Origin: Vicugna vicugna | Taxonomy: Eukaryota | Reading direction: 5' to 3' | Assembly (NCBI GenBank): GCA_013265495.1 | Contig: MU058198.1 | Coordinates: 3,980,419-4,044,418 of the forward strand | DNA: 64,000 nt | Shown here: one piece after another, positions 2,734-53,058 of the stretch | Layout: each line of letters starts with the position of its first letter | Numbering within the stretch: position 1 is the first letter of the stretch | Notes under the pieces: model-generated | What the model was told of the DNA's origin: nothing | What the model saw: only the letters and a program-made list of their open reading frames with translations | The model's database searches: none | Made by a program: the position numbers and the translations under genes

Positions 2734-3485
2734 TGTTACCCAAAAAACTGTCCTCTTGGTGAGCATTGAGCCAAAAGACACAACTGAGCCAAAGAGTGGG
2801 AGAAAGAAGGATTCATTACTTGCAGCAAGTATGGAGAACACTGGGGATCTTTCCTGAAGCAGCATCTCCCTGAATAGCAAAATTGGGGAAGTTTTAAGTT
2901 AAGGATACTTGCATATTCACAAAGGAGCTTGGACTGTTGACAGAGTCCAAGATTTAGTTCATTAAAGTCTCAAGGGCCAGAAAGTTGTTGGGGGGGGAGG
3001 TATAGGTCAAGTGGTAAAGCGCATGCTTAGCATGTACAAGGTCCTGGGTTCAATCCCCAGTACCTCCTCCAAAAATAAATAAATAAACCTAATTACCTCT
3101 CCCTCCAAAAAAAGTTAAAAAAAAAAAAAAGAAAGAAATTACAAGGATCAGAAAAGGTCAACATCATCATCCCTCAGGTTCCAGTTGCTGGAGGGTGGGG
3201 GTGAGTCCCTGCGGGGGTTAAATTCTGCAAAACAACTCAGGAAAGTGCTTCAAGTTAGTCCTTGCCACTGAAACAGAGTCTTGACAACTGATTTGTTATT
3301 TGCTATTGTTACTTCTCTTGCCTGATATCAGTCATTTGTTTCTGCATTATTTTGTTCCGTTAAGATCATTAATTACTGAAACCTATTCAAGTTACAAAAT
3401 GGGTGGGGCCAAAAATGGCTTCTCTTATGTCTAGAAAGCCACGCCTGGTTCTCTTTCTCCGGGGCCCTCCTTACTGTATCTTACA
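2734..3485 (-). mobile_element. Solo ERV LTR interrupted by a SINE
   Basis: Termini TGTTA...TTACA; flanks CTCC/CTTC fit a diverged 4-bp TSD; degenerate polyA signal on the minus strand at 2812-2817. Confidence 0.7.
2990..3135 (+). mobile_element. tRNA-derived SINE (camelid vic-1-like)
   Basis: A-box-like TAGGTCAAGTGG, B box GGTTCAATCCC, then aataaataaacctaattacc and an A tail. Confidence 0.9.
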
Positions 3486-14930: not shown

Positions 14931-15793
14931 TAGGTACAGGAAGTAAGACAGGAGAAGGAAAGAAGCCAGTGAGGGGAGCTTTCCTGAGCCGATTGCTGCT
15001 GTGGGTCACTGGAGACAATGGGAGACAGTGCAAAACACTCTGAGTTATTCCATCCATTGTTGCTGGTGGCTGCTCCCGGGCACCGGCCCCCCGGGACCCC
15101 TAGTCCAGCAGGAAGTGCTCAGGCTGAGCTGCAGCTGCTTGCAGGAGGACGCAGTCAGCATGGAATGGAATCGAGAGTGCCAAAGGCACGTGGGTGGGCA
15201 CTAGATGTCTGCTGCGTCAATCCCCCATCCACTCCTAAATCCACCGGATTCTTCTGTTACAGTCCCTGGCTCCAACCCAACTCCGGGTGATTTCAACAGC
15301 TGATCTCACAATGATCTTTCTACCAACTGCATATGTTAACACGCAGCAGAGTTAAGTCAGAGCACGTCCATCAGAGCTTGCCTGGTTTCCCTTTTTGCTA
15401 CTCTTCCCATCCCCATGGCAGGAACAGTTTCATTCTTCACACCTTCTGGTTCAACCTTGTAAGAGTCAGGACTCTTTCATTGCAAATGGCAGAAGCTCAG
15501 TTCAAATTGGCTTAAAAATAAAGGACGGGGAGGTTGGTTGAAAGGTTCGTGTAACTGAACGTGCCAGCCCTGCTGGATCAGGCGGTCAGAAAAAAGCCCT
15601 GGGAATGTGTCTTTCTGAACCTCTTGGCTCAGTTTGCTTGTGTTGGTTTCTCTTAAAGTAGGATTCCTCTGTGTGGTGGCACAGGTGACCATGAACAACT
15701 CCAGGTCCATCCACATCCCACCAGGAGCTTTATCCATTAGGATGCCTTTGGCTACTAGTAACAGAAAACCTGGCTTAACAATAAGGAGAGCAA

Positions 15794-15935
15794 GGGGCAG
15801 GTTATGGCTCAACTGGTAGAGTGTATGCTAAGCATACACAAGGTCCTGGGTTCAATCCCTAGCACCTCTTCTAAAAATAAATAAGCAAAGATAATTACCT
15901 CCTCCAAAAAAAATATAAATTAAAAAAATAATAAT
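15794..15935 (+). mobile_element. tRNA-derived SINE (vic-1-like)
   Basis: TGGCTCAACTGG...GGTTCAATCCC, ataattacctcc, A-rich tail. Confidence 0.88.
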
Positions 15936-19109: not shown

Positions 19110-19275
19110 GGGGAAGGTCTAGCTCAGAGATAGAGTGTGTACTTAGCATGCATGAGGTCCTGGGTTCAATCCCTGGTACCTCCATTTTAGAATGAATGAA
19201 TGAACGAATGAATACATAAATAAATAAATACCTAATTACCTCTCCCCTCAACAAAAAAGGTAAAAAAAAATTTTT
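19110..19275 (+). mobile_element. tRNA-derived SINE (vic-1-like) with degenerate TSD
   Basis: TAGCTCAGAGA...GGTTCAATCCC; flanks taaaccaacttt / taaaccacttca. Confidence 0.9.
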
Positions 19276-19569: not shown

Positions 19570-19839
19570 AAAGGGGATTTATGCACATGTTGGCTCTTGT
19601 CAGGACAATTGCACACAGTTGGTGGCTGTCACAATGAGGAAGGATGCTACTGGCATCTGGGGAGGCTGTTAAACATCTGTCAATGCCCAGTTCAGCCCCC
19701 CACCCCAAATAAGACATGCAGATGACTAGCACATTCTATTTTTCCAAAGAAATTTTTCAGGGAAAAATACATGTGAAGTACTTTCAACATATTTCTATAG
19801 AAAGTTTTAAAGTGACTTTATAAAGACAAATTTGCTTTT

Positions 19840-19894
<55 letters not shown>

Positions 19895-19978: not shown

Positions 19979-20642
19979 ATTGAAGTCCGTGGTGACCGCT
20001 CTCAGTTTCTAAGACAGACTGCATTCTGTCTGTGGGACGTGTGGGTCTCTCTCCATGAACTCGCTTTCACTTAAAAAAATGTCTGTGGTGCCTCTTGAGT
20101 CTGACCCAGCCCAAACTTGTAACCAAAGCTCTGATACCACATGCTGACCTTGACCTTGGTCCACAAGAGAGTACTCATGCTGCAGGGATCAGACTGTTAT
20201 TTCTTTATGCCCTGGCCACACTGAGGATTATTACTCTCTCAGGATGCTGGCAGGAGAGAGGTGAGGGACCCGGGGCGGGGTGTGGGGGGGGGTCCTTGCC
20301 ATTCAGTGGGAGCAGTTTTGCAGAAGTCCACTAGGGGACAGCTATCAGCAGCATCACCTTGTGAAGGCTGCTTAAAATTAAATCAAAATCAGACAAGAAA
20401 AAGCTTGCCTTCTATCCCCAGGCTCTCCTAAACAGAGGTGAACGAGCCGGGAGTAATAGAGACACATGGGATAAAATTCCAGCTCTTCCATTTACCCATA
20501 TTTGCCCCCCAAATAAGACATGCAGATGACTAGCATATTCTATTTTTGCAAAGAAATTTTTCAGGGAAAAATATATGTAAGTACTCTCAACATATTTCTA
20601 TGGAAAGTTTTAAAGTGGCTTTATAAAGACAAATTTACTTTT

Positions 20643-20643
<1 letters not shown>

Positions 20644-20690
<47 letters not shown>
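20644..20690. repeat. (TAGA)n microsatellite, copy 2
   Basis: About 11-12 pure units. Confidence 0.97.
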
Positions 20691-36168: not shown

Positions 36169-36545
36169 TGTAAATAAAATGTATTTTGATGACAGCTCAG
36201 TTGAATATGGATATATGTGGCATAATTTGCACACTTTATTTTGTAGAAATGGGTAATTTGTGCCTGAAAAGCACTGTTTCATATTAAATATGATAGCATT
36301 CTCCCTGTATGACGCTGTGTTGTACAGTTAATGTATGATCCTCTCTAGATCATGTAGGTTTTACACTAATGAACATGGTGACATGTTCTACATCTGTCTG
36401 TCTATAGTTAGTATTTTGTATGTATGTACAGGCTGTTGTGTGCTTTTTGTTTCTTGCAATAAAAAAATGTTTGGAGTGTATATTTTGCCATTTTCACGTT
36501 GTATCACTTAGTTTTTTTGGTTTTTGGTTTTTTTTTTTTCTGCCT
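36169..36545 (+). terminator. RBBP6: Intronic polyadenylation region of the short isoform
   Basis: AATAAA at 36173-36178 and 36458-36463; many TGTA motifs upstream of the second; T/GT-rich tract at about 36510-36540. Confidence 0.8.
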
Positions 36546-39500
36546 GACTGATGGCTTTGAAAAATGCATTAGCAACATCCAAAGCTTATATTTAAAGTTT
36601 GATGCTTTCTCCAAGTTGAGACACATCATAGAAAAGAGATTTACAGAGACCATTGATGCAGCTTTTATTTGGTTTTGCTTTATTTGGCAATTTTGAGCTC
36701 CTATTCTTTGTTTATATCTGTATTACAAAGGAAACCTGAAATTGGGCCCCCTACAAGTATATCAGTGTCTCGTCGATGATTTTGATGATTTTATACAGTT
36801 GAATGCATCATTCTCAAATTTTAATAGCGGTCTTCCACTTCTAGTCTGCTCAGTTGTCCCAATCTAAATATTTCCCCCTTTCTCATAAGCTATTAAAATG
36901 CTGCATTAATTGTAAGCTGTCTAAAAGCTGTAGCTTATCAAAGGTAACTCCCCTTAACCAGGGTAATATCTTAATTTTTATTATCATGGATTACCCTTAA
37001 GTATGACACCATTTTGACTTTGAGCTTTTAAGTAAAAGGCAGCAGCATTCCTAAGTTGTGGGGTGAAACATTGTTTCAGAACAGAGGTCTGGAGTAATTG
37101 GGTTCTGTAAACTTGATGGTTCTCTAAACATTTGACTACTCAGGCTTGATTTGTACACAATACAAGATGTTTGAAATCTTCACTTAGAATTTAAGGGTAT
37201 CGCTTGCTGTTTCACTTTATCCTTTTTAAATACTACTGATCTTTAATTGTGTATCAGGCATTTCACTAACCTGGGATCATTGGATCTTAAACATGATAAC
37301 ATAGAATATCTGAACTTTGGACTTGTTCTCTGAAGTATATGGCCTTTAGTTCTCATGGAACTAAATATAGTACTTCAAAAATCAAAACTTAGTGTTGGGG
37401 GATTTTTTTTTTCCCTCCTTGGGGTATATGGGTTTTTTTTCTTTTTCTTTTTCTTTTTTTAAGCATGATGCTGTAAAAAGTGTCCAAAAGTTTGTTTTGC
37501 TGGTAATTGGTTTAAACTGATTTTTATGTATCCAAATGCTAGCACAAATTAGATTGACTATCCTGGTGACTGTAGTAGTTAATGTAACACATTTTGTATA
37601 AAGTACATTTTTATATAGTATTTAAACTAATTCAGATGAAGTTTTATTTCTTGAAAAGAATTATTTCCTTTTTGTTTATTAGCATGTGTATAAACACAGA
37701 TCACATGTTCATAAATAAAGTTAACATTCTATTAGCCTTGTGTGTTCCCTGGCATGTCTGTATTACACTTATAAGAAGCAGTTTATTTTATGCTTATTTT
37801 AGGTTTCTCTTTTCTTTCTTCTTTTTTTAAAAAATAACTTTAAAAATGGCTTTAATTTTTAGGTAGAATTATTTAAAGTGGAGACATTAGATAACTTAAT
37901 AGCCCCGTCATTTATTTGCTTGGGGTACTTTTGCTGACATTTAGGATTTGAAAGAATAAATTCATAAAGCATAATTAGTACCCATCTTAGGAGACTTGTG
38001 TGTGTTATACACACAAAGCCAATTATGACAGAATCACTAAACCAGATTTTTAAATTCTGATTACTAAAATAAATTATTTACATTTTTGGTAACTTTTAAG
38101 TCAGCTCTAATCAAGGATGGCTGTTTCTGTCTATATTCTACGGCTTTGTCATTTGTAGTCATCCTTTCATGTTGGTACTCCAAAGCTGTAGGTTCTTCCT
38201 GCTAACTAAACATCTGAATTACATTTTGTAAGACCCTTTAATTTCAAGCACATGTATAGTTGGCATAAATTTTTAGATTCTTGCTCCCAGAAGCAAGACC
38301 ACAAATTAGATGTAAGGAGGTGGGTTGATCTTAATGATGTCTGTAGTGTGCATTGATCAGTTTTTTGGAAACTACTTTTTTTAAGTAGGTTTTTTTTTAA
38401 TCTGAAAGTTACTATATCAGTGTATAGTACATATAAATTCATCGTCATTTTTAAACTGCTCCTTGTTGGCATTTTACACCTCTCTCTTAATACCTTGCTG
38501 TATGTAGAAAACAGTTGGATGGCTTTCTAAATTTGTGGTAAATTTGACTTCCTTGTGCATTACAAAGTATTGAAGTGCTATGGTGATTATTTGGTGGAAA
38601 AAATGATTTAGATGCTGTTGAATATCTGAAACCACTTTTAACTAAATAAACACACAATAACTAATAACAAGTTGGCAGAAAGCTAAAAGAAAAGGTAGAA
38701 AAACCCCAGCATAATGACAAGACAGCTGTATCTTAGGAGTGGGAAGAAAGAAGAATATTAGTTTTTTAGTTCCAGCAGTAAAACAGGATAATGTAACTGA
38801 TGGCTTTCTTTCTAAGGAATTAATCAGTATGCATATTCTAGATAGTAGTGGGCTATTTTTAAAGGCTCTTAGTTTGTTTCATTGGTTAGAAGCATAGTGT
38901 AGATGATGATTGACAGCAATTTGTTCATTTCTTGTTACTTAAAATTCAGATAATTCCTAGTTTTGATGTAAAATGTTACCCTCTTCAAAAGAGATTGAAT
39001 AGATCAGAATTTAGTCTGGCTAAAAATAGGCTATTTATGTATTTTTTTTTTCAACTTCCCCCTAGTTCTTTAAGGAAAGAACACTTCGAAGCTGAACTAG
39101 AGTGAGAACCCACTGGTGGATTATATGGTTAGGATTGTAGGATTAGTGCTTATGGACCCTATAGTCTCTTAATGTGGAGCTAAGAACCTTTTGTTTAAAA
39201 TCCCAATAATACTATCCAGCAAACTAACTGTTAAAACTCTTAAGATATTGATGAGATATATTTTAAATTTAGCCAGCATTTTAATTTCCATTTATTGAAA
39301 TCCTGTGGTGGGCATTGTGCTAAGAACTTCATGTTGAAACTGGTTTCATTTCTATTTGGGGCTCTTAAGTCTTGCTGCTCTTATTTTTAATACTCTTATA
39401 CTCTTAGTTCCCTGGAATACTTGGAAAAATACATGATGAAGACTCACTTTTTTCCTTTGATCCAGACATCTTGTTACATTCTCTCCATTTTAAAGAAGAA

Positions 39501-40473
39501 TTCTGACCAATAATGCATGAGAAATTTACAACATGTTGAATAAGCAACCCTCTTACTACATTGGAAGCTAATGTTTTCATTTGGGTACACTTGCAGGGAA
39601 ATCGTTAGAGGTACATGCTAAAGGTGTGTGTGTATACATATGCACACACACATAAACACTTTTTTAAAAACTGATATTAACATCTCGAGGACAAATAATG
39701 AAGAATTTTTCAAAGTTACATTTGAAAATACCTTGTTTTGAAGCCCTCTTATATCCAGGTTTAATGCTTGCTCCGTTTGATTAAAATAGTTTTCTTTACT
39801 CTGCATATTAAAGTCCATCCTGTAACTGCTCTGTTAGACCTTGTCCCAGGGTACCTTTTGTTTCCCTTTATTTGGCCTAACACCTTTGCCCTGATAAAAG
39901 CTGCGATTTCTTTGGCAAGAAGTTATTGTTACTTGTATGGGAGAATAAACAAACTTATTCAGACTGAGCAGTACATATTTAAAAAGAGGAAAAAACTAGC
40001 AAATATTTGGGAGTTGTTTTATTAAAGCAATTACCTGAGCCTTTAAAGAGCTCCTTGTTTTTTACAATGTTGTATAATGGCATTACAGGAGTTAAATTTC
40101 TTATACTCTTCTCGTGTACATTGTCTTGAGCACTATCAAATTTAGAGACCATTGATAGACATGAGTCTCTTACTTAGAATTTTTCACCGCTCTGAACAGC
40201 TTTCCTATGTGACATACATACCTTTTTTTAAACCCTGTTTTTTCATTGTAATTGAGCCCCCCTCAACGATCAGCCTTTGCTTACCATATGTGAGATGTGT
40301 GGAAAGGATAAGTGGGGTGAACTACATTTCAGCTTTAAAACAAGATAACATTCTTTAGAAAATTTCTAATAAAATGCCCAGTATTTGAACATAAGTGGCA
40401 GTGGGGACTAAATGATCACTTTCAGATGTTTTCAGTGTGGAACTTGAATGTGTGTTTAATTTTTTGTGAACAG

Positions 40474-40518
40474 ATTGATGACTCTTCTGCGTCTATTTCT
40501 CTGGCCCAGCTTACAAAG
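40474..40518 (+). CDS. RBBP6: RBBP6 exon 4
   Basis: gaacag|IDDSSASISLAQLTK|GTATAT; 45 nt. Confidence 0.93.
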
Positions 40519-42587
40519 GTATATATACATATATATATTCTTGAAAGTATTAATCTTTTTCTAACATATCTTTTTTAATGTGGAACAATTGTTTTAAAAG
40601 GGGTTGGGGGAGGAGATATTTGGCAAAAACATTGTACATATTATTACTATCCTGTAAAGAGTAGTTGCTGTTTTGAAAAGATAGGGGGAGTATTTTGTCA
40701 GCCTCACCATAATGTTGGAGTGTTGTTCATCTTCAAGACAGAAGAAACACATGAAGCTACACTTGCTTTTTTCCCTCATACATTTTGTTTAATTATACAT
40801 TGGAAACTAACAAATTTCTGGAGGAATTCCCTGGTTTTGGCTGTAAATTATGTGGACTTTCTTTAAGCAGCCAAAATAGAAACTTTCCTTTACATGGACG
40901 ATTGCGTGGTTATTTCTTGAATATCTGAATTGATCCCATGAAGGTCAACATTTTAAATGTGATGCAATTGTTTCTTTATGCTATAGACTTGTAGTCTGTC
41001 TGCATTAGAAAAAGTTTTAAACAATCTAATTTGTTTGAACACAGACTACGTGAATTGTGTAAATGTATAAAGTTGTTTGCAGGAATATACCAATGTGTAT
41101 GTTTGGCAGAGGGGCAAGTTGTTACCTCCTGAAATCATTGTATATGCCATGTTTTTGCGATAAGATTGCTTGCAATTTTCTGCTCAACAATGTGTACCTT
41201 TTGTTTGGGAAAGCACTAGTGATGGATTACTTTTTAGAACGATAGACTTCGTTTGCAAATCAAGCCTTAAAAGAAGAGAGGCAGATATTACAGAATAGGC
41301 ATATTTTTGAGGGCCAAGAAGGAAGTTTTCTAGTTTTCCAAAAATGCTTTTTCCCCTGCTGTCAGAAATGTAAAACTAAATTTAGCAACCAAGGTTAATG
41401 AGTAGATGGTTTTTCCATTAGTGCTGTCCCTGTCTTGTCCTTGGCTTTGTTACAGGTCTCATTCTTATCCCTAGAATGTATCCCCACAAATGTCCTAGTA
41501 ACAAATAGAGCTTTTTAAGCTCCTGTTGTGGGAAAACTAAACATTAAAGTTGATTCTAAAACATAAAGTGGGCTAAAACCAATCTATAATTTTTTAATGC
41601 AAAGTGGTTTAGCATAGAGTTAACATCTCTAGCAGTTTGTAGTTCATTGTTTTAATTCTTATGTACTGTAAGGAACATATTTGAGTTTTTGGTCTATTCC
41701 TACGATTGTTTTTTTGTGGGAAGCAATTGGGGAGCTTTGGAGGTTTGGGGGATTTTTTTTTTTTTTAAGTATTTGTAAGTTAATGTTTGGGTTCAAACAA
41801 ATTAGTTGTTCAACATCTGTAATCCAGTTTTCTGTAAATGTTGCTGTTCTAAGCTCTGTTAATGTTAAGCATTCTTTGTATATACAATTACAATAAAATG
41901 TTAAAACTGGTTGCTTGTTTTGTGGATGAATGTAAAGACAAAACCCAGTGAATGGCTGGTATGAGTGCTAGATGCTTGAAAATTCAAGTTACTAGGACTC
42001 ACTCCCTTAGACCCTGCTTATATCTAGACTGTTGTATGTACTACTTTAAAAATGAAATTCGTAAGTCTTTGGAGAGTTGGATTTAAAATTTGCTCACTGC
42101 GTGTGCTTTGCACTTAATTTGAAATTTGACACCACTACCTAAAGAGCCTTCTGACTTTTGTATCTGCTGTGTAATATGTTCAGTTGTTCTACCTCCAATC
42201 CTGCCTCCAGGTTATATGCTTGACATTTGATGCTTAATGCTGTGACACTTGGATTATTTTAAGGTGTAAAAACATCAAGTGTTTCTCTCCTAACTTAATT
42301 TCAGTTTTTAACTCTTAGAAAAGTAGTATGCAAATCTAAATGTAAGGTACAAACAGGGTCTAAGGTTTGAGTGCCCCCCCAGAAAGACTTTTCTTCAGCC
42401 CTGTAGGCACCCAAACATCATGTAATGACCTAAGGAACTTCCAGTGCCTCTTCTAGGTTATACCTGTAAATAACTGTTTTTATGCAAGAGTAGATACTGC
42501 TCTTTACAGGATGCGTGGTGTTGTCTTTGGCTGTGTGGTCTTAAATGTGTTTCTAATGTGTGTGTCAAATAATTACCTGTTAAACAG

Positions 42588-42676
42588 ACTGCCAATCTGG
42601 CTGAAGCCAATGCTTCTGAAGAAGATAAAATTAAAGCAATGATGTCGCAATCTGGCCATGAATACGACCCAGTCAA
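42588..42676 (+). CDS. RBBP6: RBBP6 exon 5
   Basis: taaacag|TANLAEANASEEDKIKAMMSQSGHEYDPV|GTAAGT; 89 nt. Confidence 0.94.
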
Positions 42677-42797
42677 GTAAGTTCATAAATACTTTACGTA
42701 TATATGATAGGTACTTTGGGGTGGGTCATTTGCCCCCCACAAACCAAAAGCATGTTTTCAAATCTTTGTGTACATGTAATGTTTTTTTCCATTGCAG

Positions 42798-46293: not shown

Positions 46294-47468
46294 GTAAGAA
46301 GCTACTTATCTTAGAGTATGTGTGTTTCCTTGGAAAGGCTCTTAGCAGTATTGTGTATTTTAATAACAAGAACTCTGTTTTTGTTGCTACTTTCTTTTTT
46401 AAACAACAGCCTCTTTGTCCTTTTACATATTAGAATTGACTGCCTCCTTTACCTTCAGCAGGGTAATATGACTGAGGTTTTATAAAACATGGGATTTTTG
46501 TTTCCTATATATTTTAAATGGTATACAGAATTTAAAAGCCATTTGGGCCTTAGATATTCCAGATATATTTTTAAATGATACCCAAATCCCTTTCCAAGGC
46601 TATGAAAAATAGGTTATTCTGAAATTCCTAAGTGTGATTGAGAACTGCTCTCTGTAAACATATTACCCAGAATTTGCCATGGAGTTACTTGTGAGTTTTT
46701 TCTCTAGTCATTTATATTAGTACTTGAGTTTTTTTTCTGCCACTTATCTTAAGTCTGTCCCTTCTTACCCAGATGAAAATGATGTCCTCTGAAAATTTCA
46801 TTGCTCAGTCCTGCTCTGGTCTTTTTCATTTCTAAAAGATAGTTTTCGAATAGAAATCTTTGTTTTGGGACCTCTTCAGTGAAGACCAAAGTCAAGAAGA
46901 GGTCACTTATGACTTGTTTCAGTGTGTGTCTTGTATTTAACAAACAACTAATTACTGAATTTTTTTTTTTTGACTACACTGGAGCATAATCAGTGCATCT
47001 GTAATTTAGTGTGTTTTCTTACCTGCTGTGCTATATAGATGTTTCTAATTTCCTTGCCTGAATAATGCTTCTTTTATTTATAATGCTCTTTTCTAGTAAT
47101 GCCTCTCTTAAAAACCCTGTGTTGGCCATATAAAGTTTTTGTCTCTTTCTAGACTATCTCTATTTCAATTTTTTTTCCCTATAATCCAGTTACTAGCTAA
47201 ACAAGGAGAATAGTATTTGAGAAAGAGCATCTTTTCTCAATTTAAATGCTTAAATTATATCCATGCCGTCTGTGTATAAGGTAGAGAGAAATTAGAGTGG
47301 AGGAGTGCTAATCAGGCAAGAAATTGTAAGTTTCTGAATCTAAGTATAGAAATTAGTGATGTGTGCTTGGAAAACAGTACTGTAACTGAAGACATGTAAG
47401 CTTTTTAACTCACCCTAAAAACTGAGTCCCTACTATGCTTTTCTTAATATTTAAAATCTTATACATAG

Positions 47469-51709: not shown

Positions 51710-51983
51710 ATATGTGTGTATATGTATGACTAGGACTTTGTGCTATACACCAGAAATTGACACATTGTAACTGACTATACTTTAATTTAAAAAAAATATT
51801 AGGGGGAGGGTGTAGCTCAAGTGGTAGAACGCATGCTTAACATGCACGAGGTCCTGAGTTCAATCCCCAGTACCTCCTCCAAGAATAAATAAATAAATGT
51901 AATTTCCTCTCTCCCCACCCAGGAAACCCAAAATACAATAAATAAATGAAAATAAATTTTTTAAAAATTAAAATTTTTTTTTA
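51710..51983 (+). mobile_element. L1 3' tail fragment (51710-51800) followed by a vic-1-like SINE (51802-51983)
   Basis: L1 piece resembles 7515-7600; SINE TAGCTCAAGTGG / AGTTCAATCCC; both lie between AAAACTAAT repeats at 51701-51709 and 51984-51992. Confidence 0.85.
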
Positions 51984-52926
51984 AAAACTAATGAATGATA
52001 TGTATAGAGAATTTCAAATAAATAATTAATGATGATTTTTTTTTAGGGCTACATTTTTAGTACTCCTTCCCAAGGATTATTTTCTCCCTGTTAGCACACA
52101 GCAGAATATTGGCTTACATATACTCCACTGAGCGTAGAAGGAACTCAGTAAGGCCCAGACAATATTTAAGGTGTCTATTTAAGATGAATGTCAAGCAGCT
52201 CAGCTCCCAATTAAAAACAATTGGGTTTCTCTCTCTCCTAGACTCGGTTGTCCCAATCTTCTCCCACTTTCTCTTCCAAGAGAAGAGATAAGGGGGTTGA
52301 TAGAGGCCCTTGCCCTGGACAGGCACAAGCAATGTTAATCTAAGAAGTAAGCCATACAGGTCTTACCATCTAGGTCATACTTAACGTATCTTCTGGTGCT
52401 CCAAAGAGAATTGCTAAGCTTATGAAAGATAGCTACTATTTCATTGTTAGATCACATATTTATTAAGAAGATAATATTTACTAATTCAGACTTTCTGAAA
52501 AGAGGCTTAAAATCCAAACCCCTGCTGCTGCTGTTACATACCAGTTACTTATAATTTAAAGTTACTTATAGTATAAATATACTATAAATTAGAAATAAGA
52601 CCGCTCTTTTAAAGAAACCACTGTTTCTTTGATGAGGCAAAATTCAGAAACTTTGGCCAGCACTATTATTTTTACCTAATAACCCTTTGAGAGAAAACAG
52701 ATTTTCAGTTGTTAATTACAAACATTAAACTTATTCTACTTTGAAGGATCTTATTTCCTCAGAAAGATTATAGGAAGTGGTTTTTCTTCATTTAAACTCT
52801 TGGTCTTGGAAGGCATTTGAGGGAGAACTCGGTCACAGAGAATTAACCTGTCTGTCCTTCAAATGACAGATTCGGAAGTAACGAGATCATTGTGGAGTGA
52901 TAATCTGAATGTCACAAAAGAACTTT

Positions 52927-53058
52927 GGAGGGAGGGTCTAGCTCTAGTGGTAGAGTGCATGCCTAGCATGCAGGAGGTCCTGGGTTCAGTACCTCCATTA
53001 AATAAATAAGTTAAATAAACCTATCCCCGCCCCCCGACCAAAGGAATTAAAAAAAGAG
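52927..53058 (+). mobile_element. tRNA-derived SINE (vic-1-like) with TSD
   Basis: TSD AGAACTTT at 52919-52926 and 53059-53066; deletion just after GGTTCA. Confidence 0.88.

Follow-up and report, generated by a model that had tools for sequence, protein, structure and literature searches.

Intron 4 of RBBP6 probably harbors a conserved composite polyadenylation site that attenuates the full-length transcript

The RBBP6 locus

RBBP6 occupies the + strand of the window, our term for the entire 64,000-nucleotide stretch of the Vicugna vicugna genome analyzed here (contig MU058198.1, positions 3,980,419 to 4,044,418). Exon 1 matches the solved structure of the DWNN domain as well as RBBP6 proteins, and exons 2 to 10 keep the human exon sizes. 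By sequence identity, this is the gene of a core cleavage factor. According to PMC8887125, activation of the CPSF73 endonuclease depends on RBBP6, and the isolated UBL binds CPSF73.

The papers cited here, as far as their available text extends, treat isoform 3 as the single intronic brake of RBBP6. Di Giammartino 2014 (PMC4201286) placed the isoform-3 polyadenylation site in intron 3 and, in the Discussion, proposed autoregulation for this isoform. In the window, translation makes isoform 3 an exon 3 read-through product of 118 aa, and intron 3 may contain two conserved polyadenylation sites, one at each of the hexamers at 36458 and 37714. Our subject is a site in intron 4 (40519-42587; 2069 nt, against 2057 nt for the human counterpart), which differs from the isoform-3 site because the latter lies in intron 3. 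The features that bear on it are as follows.

36458..36463, + strand: isoform-3 polyadenylation signal in intron 3, the known upstream trap (PMC4201286); a human 3'-seq peak maps here
37714..37719, + strand: second AATAAA of intron 3, counterpart of a minor peak in human (naive B-cell usage 0.05)
40474..40518, + strand: RBBP6 exon 4, 45 nt (the same length as in human), with donor AAG/GTATAT lacking a +5 G
40519..40578, + strand: read-through coding extension, 19 codons plus stop, giving a 135-aa product with a hydrophobic tail (GRAVY 1.44)
40519..41915 (end approximate), + strand: putative composite terminal-exon extension with a 3'UTR of ~1.3 kb, deduced from the human Composite class and the mapped human peak
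41663..41670, + strand: GTACTGTA, labeled a miR-101 8mer in the preliminary description
41877..41884, + strand: TGTATATA, a Pumilio-type element that also supplies one of the three TGTA motifs within 100 nt upstream of the AATAAA
41892..41897, + strand: AATAAA polyadenylation signal, the sole AATAAA of intron 4 and the positional orthologue of the human peak at hg19 chr16:24566220-24566259
41908..41925, + strand: GT/T-rich downstream tract, identified by sequence (GT+TG count 12)
42588..42676, + strand: exon 5, whose acceptor competes with the site and leads to full-length RBBP6

A preliminary description of this DNA had proposed a second intronic terminal exon here, and its coordinates and lengths hold: the donor is as given, read-through yields 135 aa, splicing to 40987 yields 143 aa, splicing to 41045 yields 118 aa, and isoform 3 is 118 aa. 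The motifs it named at 41663 and 41877, the AATAAA at 41892, and the GT/T tract at 41908-41925 were likewise all found. Because the stop precedes exon 5, the predicted products that end in intron 4 keep the DWNN domain and lack the zinc knuckle, PSR, and RING. The zinc knuckle is encoded in exon 6, and all of the predicted intron 4 products stop before it.

The intron 4 signal and the exon 4 donor

A canonical hexamer, upstream UGUA, and a downstream GU/U tract are all present at the intron 4 site. Among the 19 AATAAA sites scanned in introns 1 to 8, the one at 41892 has the highest downstream GT+TG count (12), and three TGTA motifs within 100 nt upstream occur at only two, 41892 and the isoform-3 signal. 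Taken on their own, the intron 4 motifs are modest. Specifically, when 1000 dinucleotide shuffles are used to gauge chance, 41054-41897 contains 14 TGTA against 6.3 expected (P=0.002), the miR-101 8mer has P=0.013 (a weak value for a motif picked after the fact), and the Pumilio element has P=0.095. The single AATAAA in the whole of intron 4, compared with 1.9 expected, is at chance level when taken alone.

The stretch ahead of the hexamer had been described as TGTA-rich, repeat-free, and 3'UTR-like. The enrichment and the lack of repeats stand, but TGTA is equally dense past the hexamer (12 in tile 41076-41927 and 12 in 41928-42779). The intron 4 stretch is free of tandem repeats, copies of dispersed repeats, and Rfam families; the two Rfam matches obtained fall far under the gathering score, and both lie outside the part of intron 4 that precedes the hexamer. 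A fold test of 40640-41000 revealed no structure (z = -0.17). An A-rich patch at 41934-41944 (8 A in 10 nt), less than 50 nt past the hexamer, could prime oligo-dT in vicugna data.

The exon 4 donor matches the U1 consensus at 6/9 positions by a crude score and carries A at +5. A +5 G is found in 11 of the 13 RBBP6 donors scored and is missing from two, exon 4 among them. The donors of exons 3 and 13 score lower still, at 5/9. Thus, the exon 4 donor, which had been called weak, is suboptimal but not extreme.

Use of the site in human cells

A human 3'-seq atlas from which internally primed peaks were removed (Singh 2018, PMC5928244) lists four intronic RBBP6 peaks. We considered all eight RBBP6 rows of its supplementary file 4, a table of differential rows that is confined to the cell types these rows cover. 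For the peak at hg19 24566220-24566259, the retained coding length is 402 nt (357 + 45), or 45 more than for the intron 3 peaks. Those extra 45 nt are exactly exon 4, and the human peak therefore lies after exon 4. Taking the human exon boundaries given by IPAFinder (PMC8559711), we mapped the peak to window positions 41860-41899 when anchored at the donor and 41872-41911 when anchored at the acceptor. Both intervals cover the AATAAA at 41892-41897, and the orthology of the hexamer is one of position rather than of DNA alignment. The donor-anchored mapping also puts two human intron 3 peaks on the hexamers at 36458 and 37714, such that three of the four peaks map to a hexamer. The human intron 8 peak, with usage of 0.55 in blood T cells and 0.42 in plasma cells (PMC5928244), has no AATAAA or ATTAAA at its mapped location, 46351-46413, and is either lineage-specific or an artifact.

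Usage of the intron 4 peak is 0.19 in naive B cells, 0.10 in germinal-center B cells, and 0.22 in plasma cells, while the isoform-3 peak reaches 0.11 in naive and 0.05 in germinal-center B cells (PMC5928244). The ratios of intron 4 to isoform-3 usage are 1.8 and 1.9 in the naive and germinal-center cells, respectively. In TCGA data, IPAFinder reports one RBBP6 event (PMC8559711). The event is designated intron_8, which corresponds to intron 4 in our numbering; it begins at the end of exon 4, is classed Composite, and is changed in all six tumor types tabulated (up in LUAD, HNSC, and PRAD; down in LUSC, UCEC, and BLCA). It ends 1208 nt into the intron, whereas the 3'-seq peak spans 1342-1381; the shortfall of 134-173 nt, we infer, reflects coverage taper. 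Given the human Composite class, read-through of the exon 4 donor is favored over splicing to 40987 or 41045.

The central proposal of the preliminary description, a second intronic polyadenylation site in use in intron 4, is thereby borne out: the 3'-end peak that it suggested looking for at the human orthologous site is present in a published table and maps, by position, onto the hexamer, and the region is conserved.

Candidate acceptors and conservation across vertebrates

Three candidate acceptors and one conserved block lie between the exon 4 donor and the hexamer.

40663-40676, + strand: candidate third acceptor, AG at 40663-40664, at the start of the chicken alternative exon; 3 codons then a stop, 119 aa
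40665..40973, + strand: chicken-conserved block with broken reading frames (tblastn E=1.5e-9), beginning just past the AG at 40663-40664
40987..41070, + strand: candidate acceptor A1 and its 27-codon tail, 143 aa; rank 8 of 117 intron 4 AGs
41045..41053, + strand: candidate acceptor A2, 2 codons plus stop, 118 aa; rank 18 of 117 intron 4 AGs

A1 and A2 do not stand out among the intron 4 AGs, as ranked by a crude pyrimidine score that discriminates poorly (the true exon 5 acceptor ranks only 49). Splicing to the AG at 40663-40664, a candidate absent from the preliminary description, would remove a mini-intron of 146 nt, and the pyrimidine tract there is poor in vicugna. We take the agreement in length between the 118-aa product of 41045 and isoform 3 as a coincidence, there being no conservation evidence for it. 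A poison cassette exon in intron 4 was also considered and is unlikely: the intron has no internal donor at 7/9 or better and three at 6/9.

Conservation was assessed in a set of 194 proteins, gathered from listings that reached 120 of 214 hits and 15 of 164 members; its rows are not independent because the set includes bird paralogue arrays and unspliced ORF calls. The exon 4 motif is present in 88 of the 194. Of these, 32 run into exon 5, 35 continue with valine, as read-through would have it, and 21 have another tail or a stop. Named isoforms ending after exon 4 exist in sharks, skates, sturgeon, eel, pike, salmonids, frogs, gecko, viper, and birds. Among the matches listed, no named mammalian protein ends there, the only mammalian candidates being three unspliced ORF calls without a name, and none of the 194 proteins carries the 40987 or the 41045 tail. 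The preliminary description's suggestion that the site is used mainly via those two acceptors thus finds no support among the listed proteins or in the human event, which is classed composite.

A second residue of Y, E, or H, present in 33 of the 35 read-through tails, requires A at donor position +5. Thus, the non-consensus donor looks conserved from sharks to birds. By sequence comparison, the read-through tail itself is not conserved across vertebrates: on average 2.6 of its first 10 residues are identical to those of vicugna, and 0/35 tails reach 8/10, compared with an average of 6.7 and 29/63 tails for the isoform-3 type. The notion of functionally distinct, "designed" tails is consequently not supported.

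Of ten tails aligned to intron 4, those of chicken and one mammal matched clearly, that of gecko matched marginally, and seven gave no match. In chicken isoform P0035, the tail of 108 residues aligned to 40665-40973 with many frame breaks and a frameshift-aware score of 66.9, where 200 shuffles reach at most 22.7 and 28 tiles at most 20.9. The mammalian ORF, P0128, aligns over 40523-40920. The gecko match, ~190 nt downstream of the chicken one, scores 23.2, a value reached by 0/200 shuffles and above the tile maximum of 20.8. Frog tails did not score above chance against the window (136 and 185 of 200 shuffles equaled or exceeded them). Because the chicken match persists through frame breaks, proximal intron 4 is conserved as non-coding sequence. 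The sequence comparison covers 40519-40973, and at the hexamer conservation is that of position. The site is thus shared between human and vicugna by position and with chicken by proximal-intron sequence.

Vicugna sequencing runs

In 14 of the 24 listed vicugna runs, 0.58-0.63 of the words of 40400-42700 are present. These 14 runs, from six studies, are RNA or guessed to be RNA; five of them, from two studies, are on record as RNA. Four runs of unknown kind hold 0.96 of the words; run X19, at 0.11, is uninformative. The word shares predicted by model are 0.65 for a composite exon, 0.43 for A1, 0.40 for A2, and 0.03 for spliced RNA only, and full-intron coverage at 1.5% divergence also yields 0.63. 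The observed share is therefore consistent with a composite exon and equally well fitted by whole-intron RNA or DNA from a species ~1.5% divergent, so it does not discriminate among them.

Discussion

With a probability of about two-thirds, we favor the reading that a composite polyadenylation site, conserved within intron 4, serves to attenuate full-length RBBP6, the DWNN-only product being incidental. The notion is that when the suboptimal exon 4 donor is not used in time, cleavage would occur after the AATAAA at 41892, ~1.4 kb into the intron, and that this cleavage, downstream of 41897, would compete with splicing of exon 4 to exon 5. The resulting mRNA would comprise exons 1 to 4 with a 1.3-kb 3'UTR and would encode the DWNN/UBL followed by a non-conserved hydrophobic tail. 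Together with the intron 3 site, a part of the transcripts would leave the full-length pool in proportion to cleavage and polyadenylation activity; if the human B-cell figure applies, the share diverted at intron 4 would be ~10-20%. The vicugna site would presumably be used as the human one is. In favor of this reading stand the human peak and its usage, the similar intron lengths, the Composite class, the chicken-conserved block, the +5 A implied by most read-through tails, the word share of the runs, and the attenuation of RBBP6 by PCF11 in human and zebrafish. Against it, the word share has the other explanations given above, the hexamer is orthologous by position, the IPAFinder end falls short of the 3'-seq peak, the downstream A-rich patch could prime oligo-dT in vicugna, the tumor changes go both ways (three up, three down), and the 194 proteins include no named mammalian one that ends after exon 4.

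Transcripts lacking a junction downstream of the stop should escape junction-dependent decay. The predicted intron 4 products have no such junction and should therefore escape. In reporters, hydrophobic intron-derived tails are BAG6 substrates (bioRxiv 2022.07.20.500724, available text), and the read-through RBBP6 protein may, by analogy, be short-lived. The isoform-3 tail is also hydrophobic (0.90), yet the isoform-3 protein is detected. Because the UBL alone binds CPSF73, any short form that accumulates could compete as isoform 3 does.

Could splicing, rather than read-through, deliver transcripts to the site? In this extension of the model in the preliminary description, exon 4 would join largely to 40665, 40987, or 41045, and stable DWNN proteins of 118-119 aa would inhibit CPSF as isoform 3 does. 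Isoforms that connect exon 4 to something other than exon 5 are annotated in chicken, gecko, three frogs, sturgeon, and skates; vicugna has an AG precisely where the chicken acceptor maps; the chicken tail and that of one frog share a four-residue match at the same offset; intron 4 lacks a donor of 7/9 or better that could make these exons cassettes; and the UBL in isolation binds CPSF73 (PMC8887125). The human event is, however, composite, and the acceptors differ by species, the gecko tail aligning ~190 nt downstream of the chicken tail. Moreover, the frog tails align no better than chance, A1 and A2 are unexceptional as AGs, and the word share of the runs exceeds what A1 alone or A2 alone predicts. 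We consider this route unlikely, though it retains some weight.

A functionally minor site is less easily squared with the data, and we think it quite improbable. Under this interpretation, cleavage in AT-rich intron 4 is leakage past a mediocre donor, and the conserved block has another role, for example in the control of intron 4 splicing or retention or as a DNA element. A single AATAAA at chance level would be expected of leakage, as would a gene with at least four catalogued intronic peaks, one of which, in intron 8, maps to a position lacking a hexamer in vicugna; the conservation tested covers 40519-40973, with the hexamer outside; and intronic polyadenylation in general costs only a modest loss of full-length transcript (PMC5928244, available text). 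Against it, usage is 10-22%, above that of isoform 3, and both the intron length and the site position are kept between human and vicugna, as is the +5 A donor across vertebrates. That there is no true cleavage here at all, and that retained-intron or pre-mRNA coverage combined with internal priming creates the appearance of a site, is very improbable. An A-rich patch does lie downstream in vicugna, and the IPAFinder end is offset from the 3'-seq peak, but the atlas was stripped of internally primed peaks, intron 4 is indicated by two methods in two data sets, and a canonical hexamer, upstream TGTA, and a downstream GT tract are found at the mapped place.

A composite attenuator in RBBP6 would resemble several known systems. 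Closest is RBBP6 isoform 3 itself (PMC4201286), which involves the same gene and the same logic: donor read-through, intronic cleavage, and a DWNN-only product without zinc knuckle or RING. The intron 4 site differs in lying one intron further, in including exon 4, in its 3'UTR of ~1.3 kb rather than ~0.35 kb, and in its non-conserved tail (2.6 versus 6.7 of 10); its product is known only as a predicted sequence. Intron 3 of CSTF3 (PMC3708835) and intron 1 of PCF11 (PMC6428223, PMC6458999) likewise combine a gene for a 3'-processing factor, a conserved intronic polyadenylation site, a weak donor, and truncation of the gene's own mRNA. In those two cases feedback was tested, whereas RBBP6 intron 4 is likened to them by sequence and position. 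Unlike CSTF3 and PCF11, RBBP6 has tandem traps in two successive introns of short to medium length, and its product keeps a domain able to bind CPSF73.

The idea of a sensor or of autoregulation is not new in kind, and for the intron 4 site we offer it as a proposal. Wang 2019 (PMC6428223) lists RBBP6 among the CPA-factor genes with IPA, uses the word "sensor" for Pcf11, and proposes a sensor-type idea for CPA-factor genes generally. In Kamieniarz-Gdula 2019 (PMC6458999), RBBP6 is PCF11-attenuated in human cells and in zebrafish, a result given at the level of the gene, with no RBBP6 site specified in the available text. The intron 4 site itself is already catalogued in human tables, though apparently undiscussed. 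The rows in Singh 2018 (PMC5928244) and IPAFinder (PMC8559711) agree with it in position and in the length of coding sequence kept, with the composite class given by IPAFinder; these are table rows and, in the portions available, are silent on conservation, tails, and function. The main text of the IPAFinder paper, so far as it is available, makes no mention of RBBP6, and PolyASite, PolyA_DB, and GENCODE probably list the site. Full-text searches, which leave most subscription papers outside their reach, returned no text discussing it. The supplements of PMC10651852, PMC10394034, PMC6428223, and PMC6458999 contain no RBBP6 intronic coordinates, a search for an equivalent mouse table came back empty, and the available parts of PMC7471841, PMC13226542, PMC13485574, PMC2775942, and bioRxiv 2023.02.09.527751 hold nothing on it. 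The novelty implied by the preliminary description therefore extends to the discussion of the site and not to its existence, which the Singh 2018 and IPAFinder tables record, nor to autoregulation, which was proposed in 2014 for isoform 3.

Since mechanisms of this kind are known and the site is catalogued, what is gained is not a new system but an element that has been overlooked and can be tested. This second site is used at 1.8-1.9 times the level of isoform 3 in two B-cell types and shifts in six tumor types. If it is the main attenuator, assays specific for isoform 3 overlook a large part of the truncated RNA, and one small deletion would suffice to test the autoregulation proposal of 2014. 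A bolder version, which we regard as speculative and doubtful, is that the intron 4 site and not the intron 3 site is the main RBBP6 attenuator vertebrate-wide, and that the proximal block picks between read-through loss and a stable DWNN inhibitor of 118-119 aa. If so, a single trap switches between silent loss, through a degraded hydrophobic tail, and dominant-negative feedback on CPSF73, and some of the "isoform 3" protein measured so far derives from intron 4, being of the same size.

Additional observations

Short RBBP6 isoforms of birds and python carry small extra exons in the interval between exons 2 and 3 (P0038, P0192-P0194, P0020, and P0013), and those of sharks and a skate carry them between exons 3 and 4 (P0062, P0069, and P0074). 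Arrays of diverged RBBP6-like copies occur in several bird genomes, including those of stork, loon, and crane (P0081-P0107 and similar). Elsewhere in the window, a dispersed tRNA-derived repeat, which we take to be a camelid SINE, is present at 2968-3129, 15770-15931, 19126-19270, 51778-51939, and 52904-53003, with no copy in introns 3 and 4. Finally, upstream of RBBP6, the segments 19703-19887 and 20507-20690 form a local duplication of ~0.2 kb, with 96% identity between copies that lie 803 nt apart.
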